Positions 15,548 to 25,893 of a stretch of DNA of 28,385 nucleotides are shown in pieces (the stretch's first letter is position 1; the number at the start of each line of letters is the position of its first letter). The DNA is taken from the UHGV virus genome UHGV-0037349; one strand, given 5' to 3'. A program made the translations under genes and the position numbers. The notes under the pieces are model-generated. The model was given only the letters and a program-made list of their open reading frames with translations, ran no database searches and was not told the DNA's origin. This DNA is from a virus.

Positions 15548-15575
15548 ATGAGTAAGGGCTAGGCCCTTACTCATT
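15547..15575. terminator. Perfect 13-bp inverted repeat between convergent portal and RT genes (probable bidirectional terminator or junction palindrome)
   Basis: aATGAGTAAGGGC-tag-GCCCTTACTCATt overlaps the stop codons of both Q (plus) and the RT (minus). Flanking sequence is AT-rich but has no clean U-tract. Confidence 0.4.
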
Positions 15576-16544
15576 CAATCTATCAATATATTCACTATAG
15601 TTAACATGCCCCTTAATTTTATCAAAATCCTTCTCAACTATTTTCCCAGTCCTCAATAAATGTTTATATGCTCTAATTTTATTTCGATAGCCTTTAGTCA
15701 ATCTAGGTTTATTTTCATGAACTAGAAAACCATGTACTTTTAATCTATTAGGAATCCTAGCTATTCTGAGTTTTTCCTCAGCCACAACCCAATTATCAGA
15801 TAGTAACAACTCTACAACATTATCTTTAAGTTCCTCGATATCAAATGTTTCATCATCACCGGAGAAGGTCAAATCATCAGCATATCTAGTATATTTAATA
15901 CCCGTATTAGAAATCAACTCATTAATCTTTAAGTCAGTTGACCTAAATACTAAATTTGAGATAACAGGGCTACTTGGCGCACCTTGCGGAAGTCTCTGAT
16001 TAAAGGTAAGTAATTCACTCAATTTAGCAGCCTGATCGGCTCTATATCCTATTTCAACTAATGTTGAAATCACTATATCTGAAGTGATCGTATGGAAAAA
16101 ATCTCTTAAATCAATAGACAGGATCCATTTTGCACCACAATGTTTACTTGCAGCTTCATATATCCCATTCTTACCTGGGATAAAAGCATATGCATTTTCA
16201 CTTATGCCAAGACTATGATTAATGCTTAAATGATGAGCGACCCAAGACTGAATGATTTTTATACTAACCTTGGGTGCTTCAATAATTCTTTTTTTCTTTC
16301 CTCTTCCTTTGGAAATAGAAAAAACACGATAGTATTTTGACTTATTCTTAATTAACGAAGTAATAAATTGTGGGCTTACACCAATGGCAACAGACAAGAT
16401 ACTCCAAGAAACTAATGGGGGAAGCCTGAGGCCTTGTAGTCGAATAAGTTCCGCATAATATCTATCTCTCAGCGGTGTGCTCAACGCCTTAAGAAACTGT
16501 TCGGCATCAGTGAATGTGAAAAATAAGGGTAGTGGCGTTTTCAT
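15567..16544 (-). CDS. Retron-type reverse transcriptase
   Basis: 325-aa ORF with RT motifs: FIPGKNGIYEAASKHCGAKWILSIDLRDFF (retron-like F-x-G ... H ... DIxxFF block), LPQGAPSSPVISNLV, YTRYADDLTFS (YADD catalytic box), and a downstream VHGFLV segment resembling the retron VTG region. Size fits retron RTs (about 300-330 aa) and is too small for the Abi-type RTs I recall. Confidence 0.8.
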   Translation of the reverse strand: MKTPLPLFFTFTDAEQFLKALSTPLRDRYYAELIRLQGLRLPPLVSWSILSVAIGVSPQFITSLIKNKSKYYRVFSISKGRGKKKRIIEAPKVSIKIIQSWVAHHLSINHSLGISENAYAFIPGKNGIYEAASKHCGAKWILSIDLRDFFHTITSDIVISTLVEIGYRADQAAKLSELLTFNQRLPQGAPSSPVISNLVFRSTDLKINELISNTGIKYTRYADDLTFSGDDETFDIEELKDNVVELLLSDNWVVAEEKLRIARIPNRLKVHGFLVHENKPRLTKGYRNKIRAYKHLLRTGKIVEKDFDKIKGHVNYSEYIDRLNE

Positions 16545-16715
16545 AAGGTCAATCCTTAAGCAAAGCTGATGAAAACTTTCGTTGATGACGCCTGCGAATC
16601 AGCAGACGTTTCGAAGGAACGACTGCTGATTCGCAGGCGCACATTCTGTCCGCGACCTTCACAAATGAGCATGATGCATACTCTCGTGAACGCCACTACC
16701 AACGTGAATATACCA
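16545..16715 (-). ncRNA. Candidate retron msr-msd non-coding RNA (intergenic region with long perfect hairpin)
   Basis: 171-bp gap between the upstream ORF and the RT. It contains a 17-bp perfect inverted repeat (CGCCTGCGAATCAGCAG / CTGCTGATTCGCAGGCG, 16589-16605 and 16623-16639) with a 17-nt loop and no U-tract behind it. Exact RNA ends and the a1/a2 repeats were not resolved by eye. Confidence 0.4.
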
Positions 16716-17459
16716 CTATAGATGTTTGCGTGCAAGATAAAGGACCCTCTCTATATCAGAACTTTGCCTAGATTTAGTCACTGGAACTATTTCTAACCCT
16801 GACAATGTCATTCTATAAGTTCCGTCATGGCTTCTTAATAAAAATCCTTTCTTACGTAAGTTGTCTAGCTTCCCATTCAGCCAATCAAGTGATTCAATAT
16901 GATAATCGCCATTATCAAGTTGACTGAACAATCTTGGAAGATCAAAGGGCTGACATTTTTTTGCCGCTCTTAAAATAACCATCATTGTAGGTTCAGGATT
17001 GTTTTTAGCCTCATATACAAATGAAGTCACTTTTATATTAAAACCGTTTAATATCCCTACAACTAACGACTCCCACTTCTCGCGTTCTGATAATGTAAGG
17101 TTTTTACAAAAGACATAAAGCACTGCGTTTTGCGAATCAAAGAAAGATAAATTCAAATCAGATATCTTCCCTTTTTTAAAATTACTTCTCGCTAATGCCA
17201 CTAAAGCCGCTTCAATATTGTCTTTATCTGAAAATGGTGAGTAACTAATCAACACTCTTACATTTAGCTTTTCTGTTATTCGTTTCACCAATAAAGATAT
17301 CTGGCGTTTTGTTATACTATTCGAAGCAGACAATGGCACTATTTTGTTAATTGGGATGATCAACAGAATTGTATCCATAAAATCTGTTACATCTTTAACT
17401 TTTATGAACGGGAATTTTACCAACAATTCTGATAATATTTTCTGGTTAGACAAAGCCAA
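16716..17459 (-). CDS. Hypothetical protein, retron-associated (candidate effector/accessory protein)
   Basis: 247-aa ORF co-oriented with the RT, AT-rich, and overlapping the upstream ORF by 14 bp. No catalytic motif recognised; the C-terminal segment (LRKKGFLLRSHDGTYRMTLSGLEIV) could be a winged-helix-like region, which is speculative. Confidence 0.55.
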   Translation of the reverse strand: MALSNQKILSELLVKFPFIKVKDVTDFMDTILLIIPINKIVPLSASNSITKRQISLLVKRITEKLNVRVLISYSPFSDKDNIEAALVALARSNFKKGKISDLNLSFFDSQNAVLYVFCKNLTLSEREKWESLVVGILNGFNIKVTSFVYEAKNNPEPTMMVILRAAKKCQPFDLPRLFSQLDNGDYHIESLDWLNGKLDNLRKKGFLLRSHDGTYRMTLSGLEIVPVTKSRQSSDIERVLYLARKHL

Positions 17460-17970
17460 TCTCCTTCATAATTCTGGTAACCTTCGATCTTTCTGAATTA
17501 ATGGTTTGTAGCCACCCCTTAGCCGAAGCCACTGATGTTTTATTAATCGAAAAACTGCCATTACAGAATATCATCTCAATTTCCGGCTCATAATCAACAA
17601 CTCCCCTAATTGTATATGCCAATGCCATAGTTGAAGCCATATTGTTCAGTGAAGTACGTATTAAGCTCTTTTTAGATTTATATTCACATAAAGTTATATC
17701 GCCAATTTTTTCTGATTTTTGGAGCTCAACTTCTATCTTTCTACTTACACTATCACGTAATAATTTTGGAACATCTGCATGCTTGACCTTGCCCCAATTG
17801 GAATCAATAGTTGAAACAAACTCACGGACGTTAAGAAAACAAGCATAATAATACCGATTAAAAGCAGAACGACCATATGCATCTGCTAATATTGCGTGCA
17901 CCTCCCCCTTTCTATGGGTTGTATTAGCCTGCTTAACAAGGTGGTCTGCTACAAGGTGTAAAACAGTCAT
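17446..17970 (-). CDS. Hypothetical protein, first gene of the retron-associated operon
   Basis: 174-aa ORF, AT-rich, start preceded by AAGGGTAGG. Contains HRKGEVH (an Rx4H arrangement) near the N-terminus; function unknown. Confidence 0.5.
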   Translation of the reverse strand: MTVLHLVADHLVKQANTTHRKGEVHAILADAYGRSAFNRYYYACFLNVREFVSTIDSNWGKVKHADVPKLLRDSVSRKIEVELQKSEKIGDITLCEYKSKKSLIRTSLNNMASTMALAYTIRGVVDYEPEIEMIFCNGSFSINKTSVASAKGWLQTINSERSKVTRIMKEIGFV

Positions 17971-18029
17971 AGTGGTGCCTACCCTTTTAATATCTCTCCT
18001 ATATATAACAAAACGCGGCTAATTTCCAT

Positions 18030-18065
18030 ATTTGCGCGCGCTCGTATCCCCGCCACGCCTGCCCG
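18030..18065. other. Probable cos site (cohesive end region)
   Basis: Minus-strand reading GGCGTGGCGGGGATACGAGCGCGCGC resembles my recollection of P2/186 cohesive ends (GGCG(A/T)GGCGGGGAAAGCA...). Position between portal-side genes and the early region is as expected. Recalled from memory, not verified. Confidence 0.45.
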
Positions 18066-18102
18066 CTTTATGTAGTGGTTTTCATGCAGGTGCATGATCT
18101 AC

Positions 18103-18128
18103 GCAAAAGCCCGCCAGTTCTGGCGGGC
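18103..18128 (-). terminator. Rho-independent terminator-like hairpin
   Basis: GCCCGCCAG-ttc-CTGGCGGGC perfect 9-bp GC-rich stem; on the minus strand it is followed by TTTTG. Lies ~270 bp downstream of the 219-aa gene. Confidence 0.35.
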
Positions 18129-18398
18129 TTCAGCTAAAACGATCCTCAAACGATCATGCGGATTCATGCAGCATAGACATGCACCTGTGCGCCTTTAATC
18201 AAACAGGGAATAATTATTTGTTCAGCGGGAGTAGCAATATAGCGGCGGCTATTGGTTTGGAAGGGCTTATGATGACTGTTTTTGGTTAGAGTTTGAACGC
18301 CCAACATCGCCGGGCGGTGGTATTACTACATCATGGCAATGAGAAGGGTGAACCCTTTGCCAGTTTGTCCGACGATGATGTCCATCCAGAGTAAGCGT

Positions 18399-19058
18399 TT
18401 ATTCTGTTGAGATTGTAGATATTTCGGCTTGTTTTTTCTCTATGTAGATCCGACATTCCGCAAGGCATTTACCTACGGCACCACCGAAGTTTGGCCCTGA
18501 CGAAAGCAGCAATGCATCGACATTCTTGATTGATTCAAAGAAGGAAGGTGAGGTTTCAGGATTAAGGTATGTCATCAATAACATCCTTGCTGAAAGGGTG
18601 CGATGCGATGATGTAATGTAGCTTTCATGTGCTGCATTTCTCTTATCAATAAAATCGTTATTACCCTTAAGAATGTAATCCATTGCAAGGTTATAATCGT
18701 TTTTGTACCTATTAGATTCAAGCGCTAAGGATAGGTACTGGGCACATGATTCCCGCACGTTCCGACATTCTTCTTTTTTTATCTCAATTTCCGTAGCAAT
18801 TTGAGTTTGCACTTTCAGTGCTTTGGTTTGCTGCGCAATATTTTTGTCGAATTCAGATGCTTGCCGTTTTGAGGTGATTTCAAATTGGCGGTGTGAACGA
18901 TTCATAGCCCGCCATGCAACAAAAGCAGTTGCCGCAGCTGGCAGAACAGCTTTTGCGAGGTCAAACCATGGAGTCAGGGGCTCCTTTTGACTCGCAATTT
19001 GTACCGTTACCACGTCTTTAGCGGGCTTCAGTACTTCCAATAACTGAATGATGTCCAT
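18399..19058 (-). CDS. Hypothetical single-pass membrane protein (cargo between cos and the DinI-like module)
   Basis: 219-aa ORF with one predicted TM helix (LAKAVLPAAATAFVAWRAM) followed by a charged helical region; AGGAAAAAGG upstream of the ATG. No homology recognised. Confidence 0.55.
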   Translation of the reverse strand: MDIIQLLEVLKPAKDVVTVQIASQKEPLTPWFDLAKAVLPAAATAFVAWRAMNRSHRQFEITSKRQASEFDKNIAQQTKALKVQTQIATEIEIKKEECRNVRESCAQYLSLALESNRYKNDYNLAMDYILKGNNDFIDKRNAAHESYITSSHRTLSARMLLMTYLNPETSPSFFESIKNVDALLLSSGPNFGGAVGKCLAECRIYIEKKQAEISTISTE

Positions 19059-19259
19059 TGCCTTTTTCCTGAGAAAAAGAAACCATCATAGCAAAAAGCC
19101 TGCCGCTTGCTAGGGGCTTCCCACGCCTAACCCTTCACGAAATTGAATCCTCTCCGGCCTTTTCGTTATCTGTCCGCATTGAGGGCGGCTAACGCCTCGT
19201 ACGGCTCGTTGTTCAACCTTGCTGGCGCCAGAAGCAAGTTCAGACGCCAGCAACGTTTC

Positions 19260-19493
19260 TTAATGCAGCCAGCTGTCGTCTTCCCACACCTTCTGCATAA
19301 TTTTCATCACTTGTTTTCTTTCTTCGTCCAGTTGCAGTCCGGTCAGTTCCACACCGTTAGAGCTACCTTTGCGGATACGAATTACCGTTTTGGGATACAG
19401 GGGGCGCAGATTGCGGTAAAGCTCGGATTCAAGGGCGTCCAGGATAGACTGGCTAATCTTCTGCTCTTTATCGATCATTATTTCAATGCGCAT
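19260..19493 (-). CDS. DinI-family protein
   Basis: Start taken at internal ATG 19493 (MRIEIMIDKEQ...) with GAGGTGA upstream. The C-terminus IMQKVWEDDSWL resembles the DinI C-terminus as I recall it (ETWESADDWF). The ORF track extends it to 19565. Confidence 0.6.
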   Translation of the reverse strand: MRIEIMIDKEQKISQSILDALESELYRNLRPLYPKTVIRIRKGSSNGVELTGLQLDEERKQVMKIMQKVWEDDSWLH

Positions 19494-19503
19494 AAAAGTC
19501 ACC

Positions 19504-19692
19504 TCAACTGATGACATCCATTGAGCGGTTGTATTCGTGGGTTCTGATTTTTGCCATGAGTTCATCTGTTAGTTCAGAAATCCACTGCAAAGCCAGCCCC
19601 TTCTCTTCATCACTACACTCACTAGCCGCTACAAGCTTAAGAAAAAAATCAATGCGCTGGAGCTTCAAAGACTCCAAAAAATAGTCCTGCAT
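19504..19692 (-). CDS. Small hypothetical protein, first gene downstream of the LexA box (Tum-region-like)
   Basis: 62-aa ORF immediately upstream of the DinI-like gene; the upstream extension of the DinI ORF overlaps it in another frame. Confidence 0.35.
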   Translation of the reverse strand: MQDYFLESLKLQRIDFFLKLVAASECSDEEKGLALQWISELTDELMAKIRTHEYNRSMDVIS

Positions 19693-19732
19693 CTTTCCTC
19701 CTATGACACCAAAGCAATGCTGTATACATAAC

Positions 19733-19752
19733 CACTGTTTATATTTACAGTA
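19733..19752. promoter_or_regulatory. LexA (SOS) box
   Basis: caCTGTttatatttACAGta matches the CTGT-N8-ACAG LexA consensus and lies ~45 bp upstream of the minus-strand small ORF/DinI-like genes, in an AT-rich promoter-like region. Confidence 0.55.
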
Positions 19753-19844
19753 TATAATAATCTTACTGATGTAAAACGTTTTTTTACGTTCATCAGCCTG
19801 AAATGCCTGGTATTATTAAGAGCACGAATTGTTAACCCGCGTAA

Positions 19845-22259
19845 TTAATACAGGTTCCGCCACTTATCATCTTCCTGCAAACGCTGGTTCCGATAGAAGA
19901 TACGCAGGCCTGCTCCTGACGGAATACTGCCGCCACGAAGGAGTAAATAGACCTCTTTCTCGCTGCCATCAAATCCTCTGGACTTCAGTTCATAGACGAG
20001 CTGCTGTCGCTGATGGTCTGTAATTCGCTGTTTGTAGTCTTTACGCCGTTTCGGTTTCACCAAGCGTAACCTTGCAGCCAATTCCCGGCGCTCTTTTTTG
20101 CTCATACTGTGCAGGTATTCGTGCAACTCCTTGTCATCCATGCGGGTAATGTCCGTTCTGGTATCCCCATCAGCTGATTTGTCTTTCCCTTGTTGGTTCA
20201 AATTTTCAGCCAGGGGACAGTTATTGCCACGAGTCCAAGGGGCGCAAGCGCCCTGGTCGGCTGCCGCCTCCTGAACGTCAACGGCCTTACGAACCATTTT
20301 CCACTTCACTGCATGAGTGCAGATCTTGCCCTCTGCAATGGGTGACCAGATGCCATAAATACGAATACCGTGATCACCATAGGCGGTCGGCTCTTCGTTG
20401 ATTTCATAAGCGGTTCTGATCAAGTGATATTTGCGGGGAACCAACACGCCGCCCTGCTTCATAATGTAGGTGGCAAAACAGCCAGCATCAGCAGCAGCCA
20501 GAATGGCATCAAGACGCGGATCATCCAGTACCGGCGCACCTGCTTTTTTGTCACCCTGCTGCCTTGCCGCCTGACCAGCCAGCAATCGCAGTTCACGGTA
20601 AGCCTGACGCCCCGGAATGCCAAAGAAGCGGAATTGCTGAACACGATGCAGAGACGCCCAAGCATTAACGTATTCAGCGTTATCACGCAGGGATTTACCC
20701 GTTTCCTTGCTGATCTCGCCAGCCAGACCACGCCCGTCAATGTTCTTACTGATGTATTTCGCGATGTAGCTTGTCGGCGTTCCTTTGCGCGGGTTAATCA
20801 GCTCAGACTTAAAGCGTGGCCCCGTGTTATTGCCCAGTTCCTCGCGGTCTTCACGGATGGCAAACTTACGCAGTAATGCAGTGATGGCGCGGCGGTCTTT
20901 TTTACGCATGAAGCACATGAGATGCCAGTGCACAGTACCGTCATGATGCGGCTCAGCCACCCGCACGCCATACCACCGCAATCCGGCTTTGTGCATCGCC
21001 TTACGAAATGCAGCAAACATGCCGACCAGATAATCACTGCTTTGTCTTACCGTCGCATTTGTCCAGGTCGGGTTTGGTCTGCCGTTATTGAGCGTGGAAT
21101 GGAAACGTGACGGACAGGTGATGGTGTAGAAAACGGCGCAGTCACCGCGCATTTCCGCGATAAGCTCCAGACCTTTAACGCAGGCCATCATCTCATTGCG
21201 GCGATGTGCCGGGTTGCTGCTGCTGGCGTTTACCACATCTTCCATATCCAGCGTGTCTCCGTCTTCGTTCACCAGTTCATGAGAACGGAAAAACTCCAGC
21301 GACTTGCGGCGCTGCTCACGTTTATGCGTCACTGCTTCATAGCTGACATAGGGAGATGCTTTTTTGCTGACCAGACAGACAGCACGCAACTGCTCTTCCC
21401 GCCATTCGCAACGCATCTTCCACAATTTTCGATACCACCAGTCGGCGCAAAGCATACGTGCCAGCGAACCCGGTATGAGTTCATAGGGCACAGGTTTGCG
21501 GCGGTTTCTTTTCCGACGAAGTTTCTCAAACGCAGGCGGGATAACATCCAGACGCAGGGTTTCCGCAGCCACCTTTTCCCATGTCTTGCGGATTTCTTCT
21601 GGCTTAACGTCATCGGTGGCGTACAAATCACCACAAGCGGCCTCAAGACACATGCTCATATGCGCTGCTACCAGGGTGGACAGGCGTTTCACCTGATCCT
21701 GGCTCATTTCAGGCAGGATCAGCAGCCCCTCCAGCCCTTGATGGCTTGCCATAAAACGGAAAGAAACAGATAGCTGACTGTCACGTACACAATCCAGTCG
21801 CTCCAGACATGGCTTAATCGTCTCACGCAAATAGCGGGAATAAGCCTTTGGCCTGCCCAGGCTGCTGAAGTATTCGATACGTTGCATCAGCGGCTTGCTG
21901 ATATGAGAAGGCTGGGCGCTGACATCTGCCAGAATGACCATGTCCGGGTTAAAACGCTGCTGCTCATGCGCCAGCTTTGCCCGGCTAATGAGCTTATCCT
22001 GCTCCATTTCGCGCTGGACAGGATCACGGGATTCATTAAAGAAATAACGCTCCCAGACCTGCTCACTCAGTGCCTCGCGGCGCAGTTGTTCCTGCTCGTT
22101 ATCGGCAGCGTACAGAGTGATCAGGTTTGAAAGTGCAGACTCCGGCGCAACTTCCGCCGGATCCAGATAAGGGTTAATGGCCTTTTTCGGGCCGTTCCAT
22201 GAAAATGCTGCGGCAGCCTCGTTAAAGCCGCTAGAGTTGCTCATATCGTCATGACTCAT
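19845..22259 (-). CDS. Replication initiation endonuclease (P2 A-like rolling-circle initiator)
   Basis: 804-aa ORF with HUH-like motif (TVHWHLMCF) and a downstream tyrosine motif (YIAKYISK); start overlaps the Dam stop. Confidence 0.85.
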
Positions 22260-23113
22260 ACACGCACCTCGTACACAGCAGAACTATCCACGCCACGCGA
22301 AGGATCAAATCCCATCCAGCAGCGCGACCCGGAAACAGCAATGATTTCTGTTGCAGATTTACTCTCGCCAGCTGACACGCCGATGCTGCGTTTTGCCTTG
22401 ATGTAGTGGTGAGTGAAATTGCGATACAGCGAACGGATCAGGGATGTGTCACTGTTAGAAACAATGACCGGATGACCTTCTGATGATCGATATTCAAGAA
22501 CGGATGCCAGGTGATACTGGTCATCTTCAGTGAAGCCGTCAGTGTGATAACCGGAAAACGTGCCGTCATACGGCGGATCGCAATACACCACATCCCCCGC
22601 CTTCAACATCGCCAGCGTTTCATCAAAGCTGGCGCAGATAAACGTTGCCCGCTGGGCTTTTTCTGCAAATGCGCGAATTTCTTTTTCAGGGAAATACGGA
22701 TTTTTATAATTACCGTAGGGAATGTTGAAATGCCCGCTCTTGTTATAGCGACATAACCCACGGTAACCATGACGATTGAGATACAGGAAATATATCGCTT
22801 TCATGAAATCAGTAATTTCAGTTGAGTAATTAAACTCCTGCCTTATGTTGTAATAAGCTAGGTCACTGTTTGCTTCCTCAAACAAAGTTCTGGTCCGCGA
22901 TATAAACGCCTCGCAATCAGCGGCAATCTTTTTATAGAGGTTGATTAAATCAGGATTAATATCCGCAACCAGATAGCTGGGGTAATCCGTCTCCATCATC
23001 ACAGCACAGGAACCCGCGAAAGGTTCAACCAGTCGCGGGCCAGCAGGTAGGTATTTTTTCAGTTCGGACATAATTGCGGTTTTATTTCCCGCCCATTTCA
23101 GGATGGTGCTCAT
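22256..23113 (-). CDS. dam: DNA adenine methyltransferase (Dam-like, N6-adenine)
   Basis: Start taken at ATG 23113 ([11 protein letters not shown]...), preceded by GGAGGTG. Contains the FxGxG-like SAM region (EPFAGSCAV) and the DPPY catalytic motif (VYCDPPYDG); overall pattern matches E. coli Dam as recalled. Confidence 0.85.
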
Positions 23114-23337
23114 ACAGCACCTCCGTTGTAATGTTTGCCTTTCAGCTCTGCGATTTCCTGACAGGTAATGCAAAGCTGCACTCCAGGAATGGCACGGCGG
23201 CGTGCTGGCGGAATTGGTGCTTCACATTCAATGCAAAGCACGCGAGACACGCCCGGTGTTTTGGCACGGGCAGCACGGATATGGCGCTGGCGTTCTTCTT
23301 CAACGCGCTGCTGTACGAGATCCATTGCATCAGCCAT
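23110..23337 (-). CDS. TraR/DksA-family C4-type zinc-finger protein
   Basis: 75-aa ORF with CIECEAPIPPARRRAIPGVQLCITCQ (Cys-x2-Cys ... Cys-x2-Cys); stop overlaps the Dam start (translational coupling). Confidence 0.65.
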   Translation of the reverse strand: MADAMDLVQQRVEEERQRHIRAARAKTPGVSRVLCIECEAPIPPARRRAIPGVQLCITCQEIAELKGKHYNGGAV

Positions 23338-24400: not shown

Positions 24401-24919
24401 TCACAGCAAACCGAATGAAGCACCGAGGCCAGTTACGGTATCAACTGCACTCGCCATCGCAGGGTTAGCCTGTAAACGGGCCTGCAATGAAACAGCAGCC
24501 AGTGCCATCAGTCGTGTTACAGAGTTAATGCTGCTGATGGCATCACGACGACCTGCACTGGTTTTTACATCGCCAGATACCGCACCTGCAGCAACACGCC
24601 CGATCTCTGCGGTTGCACTCATGACGTAATGTGGCAGTTTCTCTTTTGCCACCTCATTAATCGGTACACATGGCAGACAATGAATCTGTGCCAGAAAACC
24701 GTCTACCAGCGTTGAATCTTCAGTCAGATCGGTAAGCAGCCAGATTTCTGGTGCGGTTAATAAATGAGGTTGAGCTGGGTTCAGCTTGTTCCGCAGAATC
24801 TGCACATTCATGCCTGCACGTTCTGCCAGTTGCACCAGGTTGTGGCGCAGTGCGAATGCACGACAGGCTTCATCAAAATGTGGATGTTTGGAAACTTGGT
24901 AATCAAACATGGTTTTCAA
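24401..24919 (-). CDS. cII: CII-like transcriptional activator (phage 186 CII-like)
   Basis: 172-aa protein. Size, position (second gene of the lytic-direction operon after the Apl-like gene) and sequence character ([12 protein letters not shown] ... [24 protein letters not shown]) match my recollection of 186 CII; not verified by alignment. Confidence 0.65.
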
Positions 24920-24974: not shown

Positions 24975-25178
24975 TTAAGCAGACAAAGCATCAACAGTCA
25001 GAGCAGCCAGGTTAATCATTACCTTTTCACGTTTTTTGTCTTTACGAAGACGATGACGAGGTAGTCGGCCATCAGCCAACATGTCGTTAATCGTATCAAT
25101 AGAAAGGCCAGTCAGTTCGCTATAACGTTCGATTGTGACATGTGGTGTATTCAGAGTAATTGAAATGTTAGGTGTCAT
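24975..25178 (-). CDS. Apl/Cox-like excisionase / lytic-operon regulator
   Basis: 67-aa ORF, first gene divergent from the repressor; small basic protein with helix-turn-helix-like character, as for P2 Cox / 186 Apl. Confidence 0.6.
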
Positions 25179-25267
25179 AAGGCAACATTCCTTCTAGATA
25201 TGGCTTGTGGCGAGCCGTTGTTTGTCGTGATTAGTAGTGAAGGCTCCAAAAGAACACTTCTGGTTCA

Positions 25268-25296
25268 ACTTTAAGATCGCTTTTGGAATCTGTCAA
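25268..25296 (-). promoter_or_regulatory. Candidate early lytic promoter (pR-like) in the immunity switch region
   Basis: Minus-strand TTGACA (25291-25296) and TAAAGT (25268-25273) with 17-bp spacing, ~80 bp upstream of the Apl-like gene and facing the repressor leader. By-eye prediction only. Confidence 0.25.
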
Positions 25297-25323
25297 CGAA
25301 TTTTGGATTTCTTTGGAGGACTT

Positions 25324-25893
25324 GTGGATTTCAATAGCGGCGGTAAGAAAGCCATAGAACGTTTAGTTGAAGCATATGGGTTCGGTACCCGTCAGGCTCT
25401 CTGTGATCATTTAGGTGTTTCTAAGAGCACCATGGCAACGCGCTATATGCGTGATATTTTTCCAGCAGATTGGGTAATCCAGTGCGCCCTTGAAACGGGC
25501 ACCTCGCTTAATTGGCTAACAACAGGGCATGGTTCAAAGCAAGCATCAGCAAATACAAATACTATAGAAGTAGAAAAATATTTATTGTCTGATGGAGCAT
25601 TGCAGAAAGACGGTTTTTATATTTTTGATAAGGGATTTCTACCCTCTACGTTTAAAAAACCTTTTGTCATCACAGATAACAATTCTGAATTTATTTGTGA
25701 TAAAGAATTTGATGATATACGTGATGGTAAATGGGTAATAAGTATTGATGGCGAAATAACGATCCGTGACATTACTCGTTTACCCGGTGGAAGAATCTTC
25801 GTCGAGGGTGGAAACAGAGCCTTCGAATGCAAGATAGAAGACATTGAAATAATTGGTAAAATTATAAGTTTAACAGTCAAGTATGTTAAATAG
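25324..25893 (+). CDS. cI: CI-type immunity repressor (186 CI-like)
   Basis: ORF track gives 25237..25893; I place the start at in-frame GTG 25324 so the protein begins near ERLVEAYGFGTRQALCDHLGVSKSTMATRYMR, which resembles the recalled 186 CI N-terminal HTH (ICEAYGF...CALETGANLQWLLTG). The start is uncertain. C-terminal half is AT-rich. Confidence 0.65.
   Translation: MDFNSGGKKAIERLVEAYGFGTRQALCDHLGVSKSTMATRYMRDIFPADWVIQCALETGTSLNWLTTGHGSKQASANTNTIEVEKYLLSDGALQKDGFYIFDKGFLPSTFKKPFVITDNNSEFICDKEFDDIRDGKWVISIDGEITIRDITRLPGGRIFVEGGNRAFECKIEDIEIIGKIISLTVKYVK

Follow-up and report, generated by a model that had tools for sequence, protein, structure and literature searches.

A probable SOS-induction operon with a naturally split tum gene (tumA/tumB) in a Fels-2/DuoHS-type prophage of Escherichia coli

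The DNA analyzed here, which we call the window, is the full 28,385-nt stretch UHGV-0037349. A prophage of E. coli PSJ-12 matches it at 99.9% identity, and the element that hosts the locus is a Fels-2/DuoHS-type, 186-like prophage of the P2 family of E. coli. On the minus strand, the gene for the 804-aa replication protein gpA (stop codon at 19845) lies directly upstream of the locus and is followed by a promoter, by a 62-aa ORF that we call tumA (19504-19692), by a 10-nt gap, and by a 77-aa, 234-nt gene of the DinI family that we call tumB (19260-19493). This position downstream of replication gene A is collinear with Fels-2, DuoHS, and PSP3. The Shine-Dalgarno sequence of tumA, AGGAGG (19697-19702, minus strand), was read from the sequence and is kept in all Fels-2-type loci, and that of tumB, GAGGTGA (19499-19505, minus strand), overlaps the tumA stop codon TGA (19504-19506).

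What might the 62-aa protein be? Pfam has no family for it, and BLASTP of the 62-aa ORF against 186 Tum gave no match, so profile methods were required to link the two. TumA matches phrog_698 (4.9e-38), phrog_8554, and phrog_1993, and residues 1-70 of 186 Tum find all three of these profiles too (6.7e-6, 3.3e-12, and 2e-23, respectively). With hhalign, a small TumA family profile aligned with 186 Tum, residues 5-42 on residues 5-42 (E = 1.7e-4), at a probability of only 49%. The profile matches, taken with genomic context and synteny and set beside this weak pairwise similarity, support the view that TumA is a free-standing homolog of the N-terminal domain of 186 Tum. It is 97% identical to Fels-2 STM2728 and DuoHS ECHS_RS04495. 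An AlphaFold2 model predicts a two-helix hairpin with a mean pLDDT of 90.7; a Foldseek search of the PDB with this model returned generic helical matches, none with an E-value of 0.001 or less, and a sequence-profile search of the PDB with TumA returned no match. Database versions of 84-109 aa are mostly N-terminal extensions that run through the promoter and LexA box; their extra sequence is hypervariable and the frame is closed in the window, and we did not adopt them. A few longer versions extend past the TumA C-terminus, none of them with a DinI domain.

On Pfam DinI (PF06183), which has a cut-off of 24.2 bits, TumB scores 80.4 bits (E = 1.3e-22). It also matches phrog_189 at 2.6e-29 over profile positions 71-148 of 151, it aligns with residues 71-145 of 186 Tum at 41% identity (E = 9e-25), and we read it as a homolog of the C-terminal half of Tum. 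Its identity is 99% to Fels-2 STM2726.1, 99-100% to the DuoHS protein, 77% to PSP3 TumB, and 30% to E. coli DinI. The motif WEDDSW aligns with WESADDW in what we take to be the sequence of E. coli DinI, and an acidic C-terminal helix is present. These matches place TumB in the DinI family. By analogy with family members that bind RecA filaments, according to literature cited in PMC3121763, TumB presumably also binds RecA filaments and tunes the SOS signal.

Each ORF matches its own half of Tum, so the locus can be read as both halves of 186 Tum carried as separate genes. The original prediction had likened the pair to 186 Tum, and alignment bears this out, with the 62-aa ORF falling on the N-terminal domain and the DinI gene on the C-terminal domain. 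It had also described the two ORFs as overlapping in different frames, and allowed for either a single frameshifted tum-like gene or two separate products. The DinI-like frame is, as stated there, literally open back to 19565, and a longest-ORF call gives a 101-aa ORF at 19260-19565, but this is a mechanical extension and not a real gene. DinI homology starts at MRIEI (ATG 19493), as it does in E. coli DinI, PSP3 TumB, and Fels-2 STM2726.1; the tumB annotations of relatives are all 234 nt long; and ATG 19493 sits 10 nt past the tumA stop codon, behind GAGGTGA. The overlap is therefore an artifact of longest-ORF calling.

Could the locus nevertheless be one tum gene broken by a frameshift, either as a sequencing error or pseudogene, or with a programmed frameshift that yields a fused Tum? 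The single 146-aa Tum protein of phage 186 contains both parts, and the open DinI frame does run upstream into the end of the 62-aa ORF. However, the portion of the 101-aa ORF 5' of MRIEI has no DinI homology, and the stop codon, 10-nt spacer, and GAGGTGA are identical in DuoHS and Fels-2. Yersinia and Klebsiella relatives hold separate genes behind different spacers, the PSP3 record annotates both tumA and tumB, split with a 3-nt gap, and phages with TumA only exist. The locus is matched in 1125 of 5426 complete E. coli genomes and in 67 phage records, and every one among the matches listed for these E. coli genomes is annotated with two genes. Because the two-gene form is conserved across matching genomes and relatives, a sequencing frameshift is excluded, and because tumA and tumB are out of frame by +1, readthrough of the stop codon would be unable to fuse them. 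On the ground of this conservation we reject the frameshift or pseudogene reading, to which we give next to no credence, in favor of the two separate products, laid out with a stop codon, spacer, and ribosome-binding site. No single fused Tum of ~146 aa is encoded, the stop codon, the 10-nt gap, and the +1 change of frame intervening, and the locus works like Tum without being a fused Tum.

The primary LexA (SOS) box, TACTGTAAATATAAACAGTG, lies on the minus strand at 19733-19752 and overlaps a putative -10 hexamer, TACTGT (19747-19752), which a 17-nt spacer separates from a putative -35 hexamer, TTTACA (19770-19775, minus strand), read from the sequence. Within the box, CTGTTTATATTTACAG (19735-19750) is the sole CTGT-N8-ACAG in the window, and this bare 16-mer is weak evidence, since 0.29 would be expected by chance and 26 of 100 shuffles carry at least one. 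Extended to the 20-mer CACTGTTTATATTTACAGTA (19733-19752), the site departs from the consensus TACTGTATATATATACAGTA by three mismatches and agrees with it at 17 of 20 positions; at this level one site was found against 0.00 expected, the match was reached in none of the 100 shuffles, and no other strong LexA site was found in the window. The LexA box that had been predicted ahead of the 62-aa ORF is upheld by this match, and the predicted DinI-family gene by the Pfam score of TumB. A generic sigma-70 scan called no promoter at the tum locus, and we attribute this to TACTGT matching TATAAT at only three of six positions.

The wider conservation of this arrangement is informative. We compared nine tum or tumA loci, those of the window, 186, PSP3, Fels-2, DuoHS, ESSI2_ev015, ESSI-2, Yersinia phage MLG42, and Klebsiella phage phi4.1, which span several Peduoviridae genera and have diverged flanks. 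All nine have a LexA box, with one to four mismatches to the consensus, 38-68 nt 5' of the start codon, and all nine have TT(T/C)(A/C)CA, a spacer of 17-18 nt, and TACTGT, the left half of the LexA box being the -10 hexamer. The annotated p95 promoter of 186 shows the same geometry, and the 186 record marks p95 as SOS-dependent. As a palindrome with a near-consensus sequence placed over the core promoter, the 19733-19752 box has the features by which a LexA operator would be recognized.

A second, degenerate LexA box, GTGGTTATGTATACAG, is found at 19720-19735 on the minus strand, where it has one base in common with the primary box. The window, Fels-2, DuoHS, MLG42, and phi4.1 all keep its half-sites GTGG and ACAG unchanged around an N8 spacer that varies, and the second box is absent, among the nine loci compared, from the 186, PSP3, and ESSI-2 types. 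The promoter and both boxes of the window are identical in DuoHS and Fels-2. This is reminiscent of colicin operators (pColR cra, ColE-type), which are likewise 31 nt long and consist of two 16-mers sharing one base. Set against the operators that precede colicin genes on pColR and pF2_18C_Col, the 31-nt double operator of the window aligns almost base for base, in a shared pattern of CTGT-N8-(A/C)CAG followed by TGG-N8-ACAG. The likeness is confined to the operator, whereas the controlled genes and the -35 regions are unrelated. By geometry and sequence, the window operator can be classed as a colicin-type double SOS operator, and since colicin operators bind two LexA dimers (PMC2994835), it probably does so too, one at the strong box and one at the adjoining degenerate box. 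LexA would then be expected to occupy both boxes of the window.

Two stem-loops flank the module. Between the gpA stop codon and the tum promoter, a hairpin at 19765-19797 (minus strand) holds the -35 hexamer in its 3' arm; a 91-nt stretch containing it folds at -19.8 kcal/mol (z = -3.0), and its sequence is kept in DuoHS and Fels-2. The hairpin may insulate or terminate the early operon; because the stem has no following U-run, the terminator role is one that we infer. Directly 3' of the tumB stop codon is a GC-rich stem-loop (19215-19257, minus strand), a 96-nt stretch with which folds at -38.8 kcal/mol (z = -3.5). No U-run follows this stem either, and a comparable stem with changed bases sits after PSP3 tumB; it is possible that it marks the end of the operon. 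A generic scan found two terminator-like matches against 1.2 expected, which is the chance level. The terminator-like match at 19498-19515, to which we assign no function, consists of a weak stem of 6 bp that covers the ribosome-binding site of tumB. An Rfam search of the window gave no match.

Is the box at the tum promoter then truly an operator? It could be argued that it is fortuitous, and that the genes are expressed by readthrough from gene A or as a constitutive moron of benefit to the host. The frequency of the 16-mer motif in shuffled windows (26%), the failure to call a canonical promoter, and the upstream hairpin without a U-run would all fit such an account. Against it, a 20-mer match this close would very rarely arise by chance, the box stays in position and in register with the -35 element in nine loci that have diverged, the record of 186 marks its homologous p95 promoter as SOS-dependent, and induction of DuoHS needs both a cleavable LexA and tum. 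We consider a fortuitous box very unlikely, and a LexA-controlled promoter is the reading that we carry forward.

The genetic evidence comes from relatives. In DuoHS, a prophage of E. coli HS, delta-tum and lexA(Ind-) each abolish MMC-induced lysis (PMC12055606). The lexA(Ind-) result alone is no proof that LexA acts at the tum promoter, because this allele blocks the whole SOS response. The deletion is informative in its design: the published delta-tum primers (PMC12055606) link the start codon (ATG) of the 62-aa ORF with its stop codon (TGA) and run on into GGTGACTTTTATGCGCATTG, from which it follows that the "tum" of DuoHS is exactly the 62-aa ORF and that tumB and its ribosome-binding site were left intact. 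One primer sequence has 0 mismatches to the window and the other has 1, the 3' primer being an exact match to 19484-19503. That tumA and a cleavable LexA are needed for induction has thus been established by others in orthologs that are 97% identical. A stop codon was noted to split tum in Fels-2 and PSP3 (Lemire et al. 2011, PMC3121763), and the same source, on the authority of Bunny et al. 2002 and a personal communication, attributes antirepressor activity in PSP3 to the upstream gene. Our own literature search for TumA, TumB, and PSP3 found no papers.

What would TumA act on? A CI immunity repressor of the 186 type, on which TumA presumably acts, is encoded on the plus strand at 25237-25893, with its true start codon probably near 25324. 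It carries the Pfam domains Phage_CI_repr (PF07022, 3.3e-31) and Phage_CI_C (PF16452, 4.7e-29), and its match to Peptidase_S24, at 16.1 bits, is under the 23.3-bit cut-off; a CI of the 186 type would not be expected to be cleaved with the help of RecA. On the minus strand lie an Apl/Cox-like gene (24975-25178, Cox/Apl PHROG match) and a CII (CP76) gene (24401-24919, PF06892), and the window, which also contains an integrase gene, holds the 186-type combination of CI, Apl, and CII. The original prediction of a Tum-like, LexA-controlled SOS module is in keeping with these surroundings: the phage is of the 186 type, the module is downstream of gene A, and both ORFs are related to Tum. Binding to CI of this type was shown biochemically only for the fused 186 Tum (Shearwin et al. 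1998, as cited in PMC3121763), and by analogy TumA is likely to be an antirepressor that acts on the 186-type CI.

It might instead be proposed that TumB is the true inducer, for example through RecA, and that the 62-aa protein is accessory. The RecA-filament binding of its family would suit this role, several database records label the gene "SOS induction modulator", and modulation of SOS induction is the annotated role of the short DinI-like forms of 186 Tum. However, deletion of the 62-aa ORF alone abolishes induction of DuoHS with tumB and its ribosome-binding site kept, and the antirepressor activity of PSP3, as far as PMC3121763 relates it, belongs to the upstream gene. In the Gifsy prophages, induction was not significantly affected when dinI was removed by non-polar deletion (PMC3121763). 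In ESSI-2 and ESSI2_ev015 a LexA box and a tumA homolog are present and a DinI gene is missing, which implies that TumA would be self-sufficient, and a CI of the 186 type is not expected to undergo RecA-assisted cleavage. That TumB is the inducer strikes us as highly improbable, and TumA is the protein that we take to be the inducer in what follows.

We put at roughly 90% the probability that the locus is an SOS-induction operon with a natural split tum, tumA/tumB, of a Fels-2/DuoHS-type prophage. In the lysogen, LexA would sit on the operator over the -10 region (TTTACA, 17 nt, TACTGT) and silence the operon. DNA damage would activate RecA and so lead to self-cleavage of LexA, and the derepressed promoter would fire to give one mRNA and two small proteins. 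TumA would bind CI, which RecA does not cause to be cleaved in this scheme, and lift its hold on the lytic promoter, allowing lytic growth. TumB would not be the inducer; most likely it would bind RecA filaments and tune the strength or duration of the SOS signal. The sequence features, homologies, operator conservation, and two-gene architecture on which this scheme draws were observed in this work, whereas LexA occupancy of these particular boxes, direct binding of TumA to CI, and the role of TumB are inferred.

The conservation of TumA and that of its presumed target do not run in parallel. The window CI is 87% identical to DuoHS CI and only 41-43% identical to Fels-2 CI. Compared domain by domain, the CI of the window or DuoHS and that of Fels-2 are 43-48% identical overall, with N-terminal domains that are 67-69% identical and C-terminal domains that are only 30-36% identical. 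Despite this divergence of CI, the TumA of Fels-2 shares 97% identity with that of the window or DuoHS. With TumA so alike and CI best conserved in its N-terminal domain, TumA could be recognizing the conserved CI DNA-binding domain; the comparison hints that it targets this domain, perhaps acting across immunity types. A further proposal is that tumA of the Fels-2 type is under an operator for two LexA dimers and that its product cross-induces heteroimmune P2-like prophages in the same cell, which we offer tentatively, as somewhat short of an even chance. The double operator, if real, would mean no basal expression of tumA and an induction that is late and all-or-none. In the searchable papers we found no description of a double operator in Fels-2-type phages or of TumA acting across immunity.

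How does the locus compare with known systems? The closest are Fels-2 (STM2728/STM2726.1) and DuoHS (ECHS_RS04495/ECHS_RS04500), which have the same gene order and 10-nt gap and differ in the cargo 3' of the module, an Orf97-position gene and others in place of the 219-aa gene, putative cos, and type IX retron of the window. In PSP3, too, tum is split and lies downstream of gene A behind a LexA box, with a tumA product of ~60 aa and a tumB product of 77 aa. Its record describes tumA as "similar to 5' end 186 tum; UV induction of prophage" and tumB as "similar to dinI and 3' end of 186 tum". In PSP3 both genes share one frame, with a stop codon and 3 nt between them, whereas those of the window lie in different frames across 10 nt; PSP3 has a single LexA box, and PSP3 TumA is only ~24% identical to that of the window, with a weak profile match (E = 0.041). 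Phage 186 has the same genomic position, a LexA box over the TACTGT -10 hexamer, and the same two protein modules, in the p95 operon, and it makes the DinI-like part separately as well, from an internal GTG start. It differs in fusing the modules in one 146-aa polypeptide, whose N-terminal domain is only ~18-24% identical to TumA, in having a single LexA box, and in having orf97 downstream, to which the 219-aa gene of the window is unrelated. The Gifsy dinI-gfoA/gftA modules (PMC3121763) resemble the locus in pairing a LexA-controlled DinI homolog with a small antirepressor and a non-cleavable repressor. In the Gifsy prophages, which are lambdoid, dinI comes first and the antirepressor and repressor families are different (PMC3121763).

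The arrangement itself is already known, having been described and genetically tested in near-identical phages, and the additions made here, the colicin-type double operator and the mismatch in conservation between TumA and CI, are modest. The main use of the finding is correct annotation. The 62-aa "hypothetical protein" encoded in about one-fifth of complete E. coli genomes would be the prophage SOS antirepressor TumA, and the gene commonly labeled DinI or "SOS induction modulator" would be its accessory partner and not the inducer. The locus also implies that this prophage should be inducible by DNA damage, which bears on the spread of its cargo, including the type IX retron defense system. 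An Orf97 counterpart downstream, which the original prediction had suggested seeking by alignment, did not materialize: the best BLASTP E-value of the 219-aa gene was 0.1, over 18 residues, and we discarded this homology. The description of the locus as near the genome end is plausible, its basis being a cos-like sequence, GGCGTGGCGGGGA..., at about 18041-18059, some 1.2 kb past the DinI gene, by comparison with what we take to be the 186 cos sequence. Similarity to DuoHS and Fels-2 stops after tumB, where the variable cargo region starts, and in the window this region carries the 219-aa gene, the putative cos site, and the type IX retron.

What might explain why TumA is 97% identical between Fels-2 and either the window or DuoHS, the prophage of E. 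coli HS, when the CI immunity repressor, its presumed target, is only 43-48% identical in the same pairings? The CI comparison set the window gene (25237-25893) against its counterparts at two loci of the DuoHS and Fels-2 comparison, L004 (31891-32523) and L005 (18701-19270). Such a disparity suggests either that the tum module has been exchanged as a mosaic unit, or that TumA recognizes a conserved N-terminal domain of CI.

TumA is also encoded without TumB. Escherichia phage ESSI2_ev015 (701-913) and Cronobacter phage ESSI-2 (701-925) each possess a tumA homologue of 70-74 amino acids that is preceded by a LexA box, and in neither phage is there a DinI-like gene downstream of it; in the ESSI-2 record the gene is present without any annotation. 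In the window, the primary LexA box upstream of tumA is adjoined by a second, degenerate LexA box (19720-19735), and judged from their sequences the two abutting boxes form a putative double SOS operator of the colicin-like kind. The second box is kept in Fels-2-type, Yersinia and Klebsiella relatives, and among the compared tum loci it is absent from 186 and PSP3 and from the phages of ESSI-2 type.

At the other end of the operon, the tumB stop codon is followed on the minus strand by a strong GC-rich stem-loop (19215-19257) that is not accompanied by a U-run. PSP3 has an equivalent stem after its own tumB, although composed of different bases. Since the similarity of the window to DuoHS and Fels-2 stops at this stem-loop, it may mark the end of the operon or the recombination boundary of a cargo hotspot. 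Directly 3' of tumB, also on the minus strand, lies a 219-amino acid ORF (18399-19058) that has no significant family match in Pfam, PHROG or PADLOC. It was considered as a homologue of 186 Orf97 and rejected, the two sequences being unrelated. The ORF occupies a variable cargo slot, is found without the retron described below in some E. coli prophages, and is possibly an accessory or defence gene.

On the minus strand at 15567-17970, with the portal gene Q on one side and the putative cos site on the other, PADLOC identified a type IX retron, a defence system of three genes: RT_IX (15567-16544, 6.2e-129), HTH_IX (16716-17459, 1.5e-61) and HEPN_IX (17446-17970, 1.4e-52). The reverse transcriptase also matches Pfam RVT_1, and an Rfam search of the window gave no match to an msr/msd RNA. 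Among complete E. coli genomes, the entire combination of cargo is found in PSJ-12 alone. Within the 428-nt non-coding stretch 17971-18398, at about 18041-18059 on the minus strand, is the sequence GGCGTGGCGGGGATACGAG, whose first 13 nt match the cohesive-end sequence of phage 186. More than 1000 E. coli genomes have short matches at either end of the cargo region. The sequence is probably a cos site, in which case the packaged genome would have the tum operon approximately 1.2 kb from one of its ends and the retron at the opposite one.

Upstream of gpA, a further minus-strand ORF (22256-23173) lies where Fels-2, DuoHS and phage 813R9 each have an annotated DNA adenine methylase gene.
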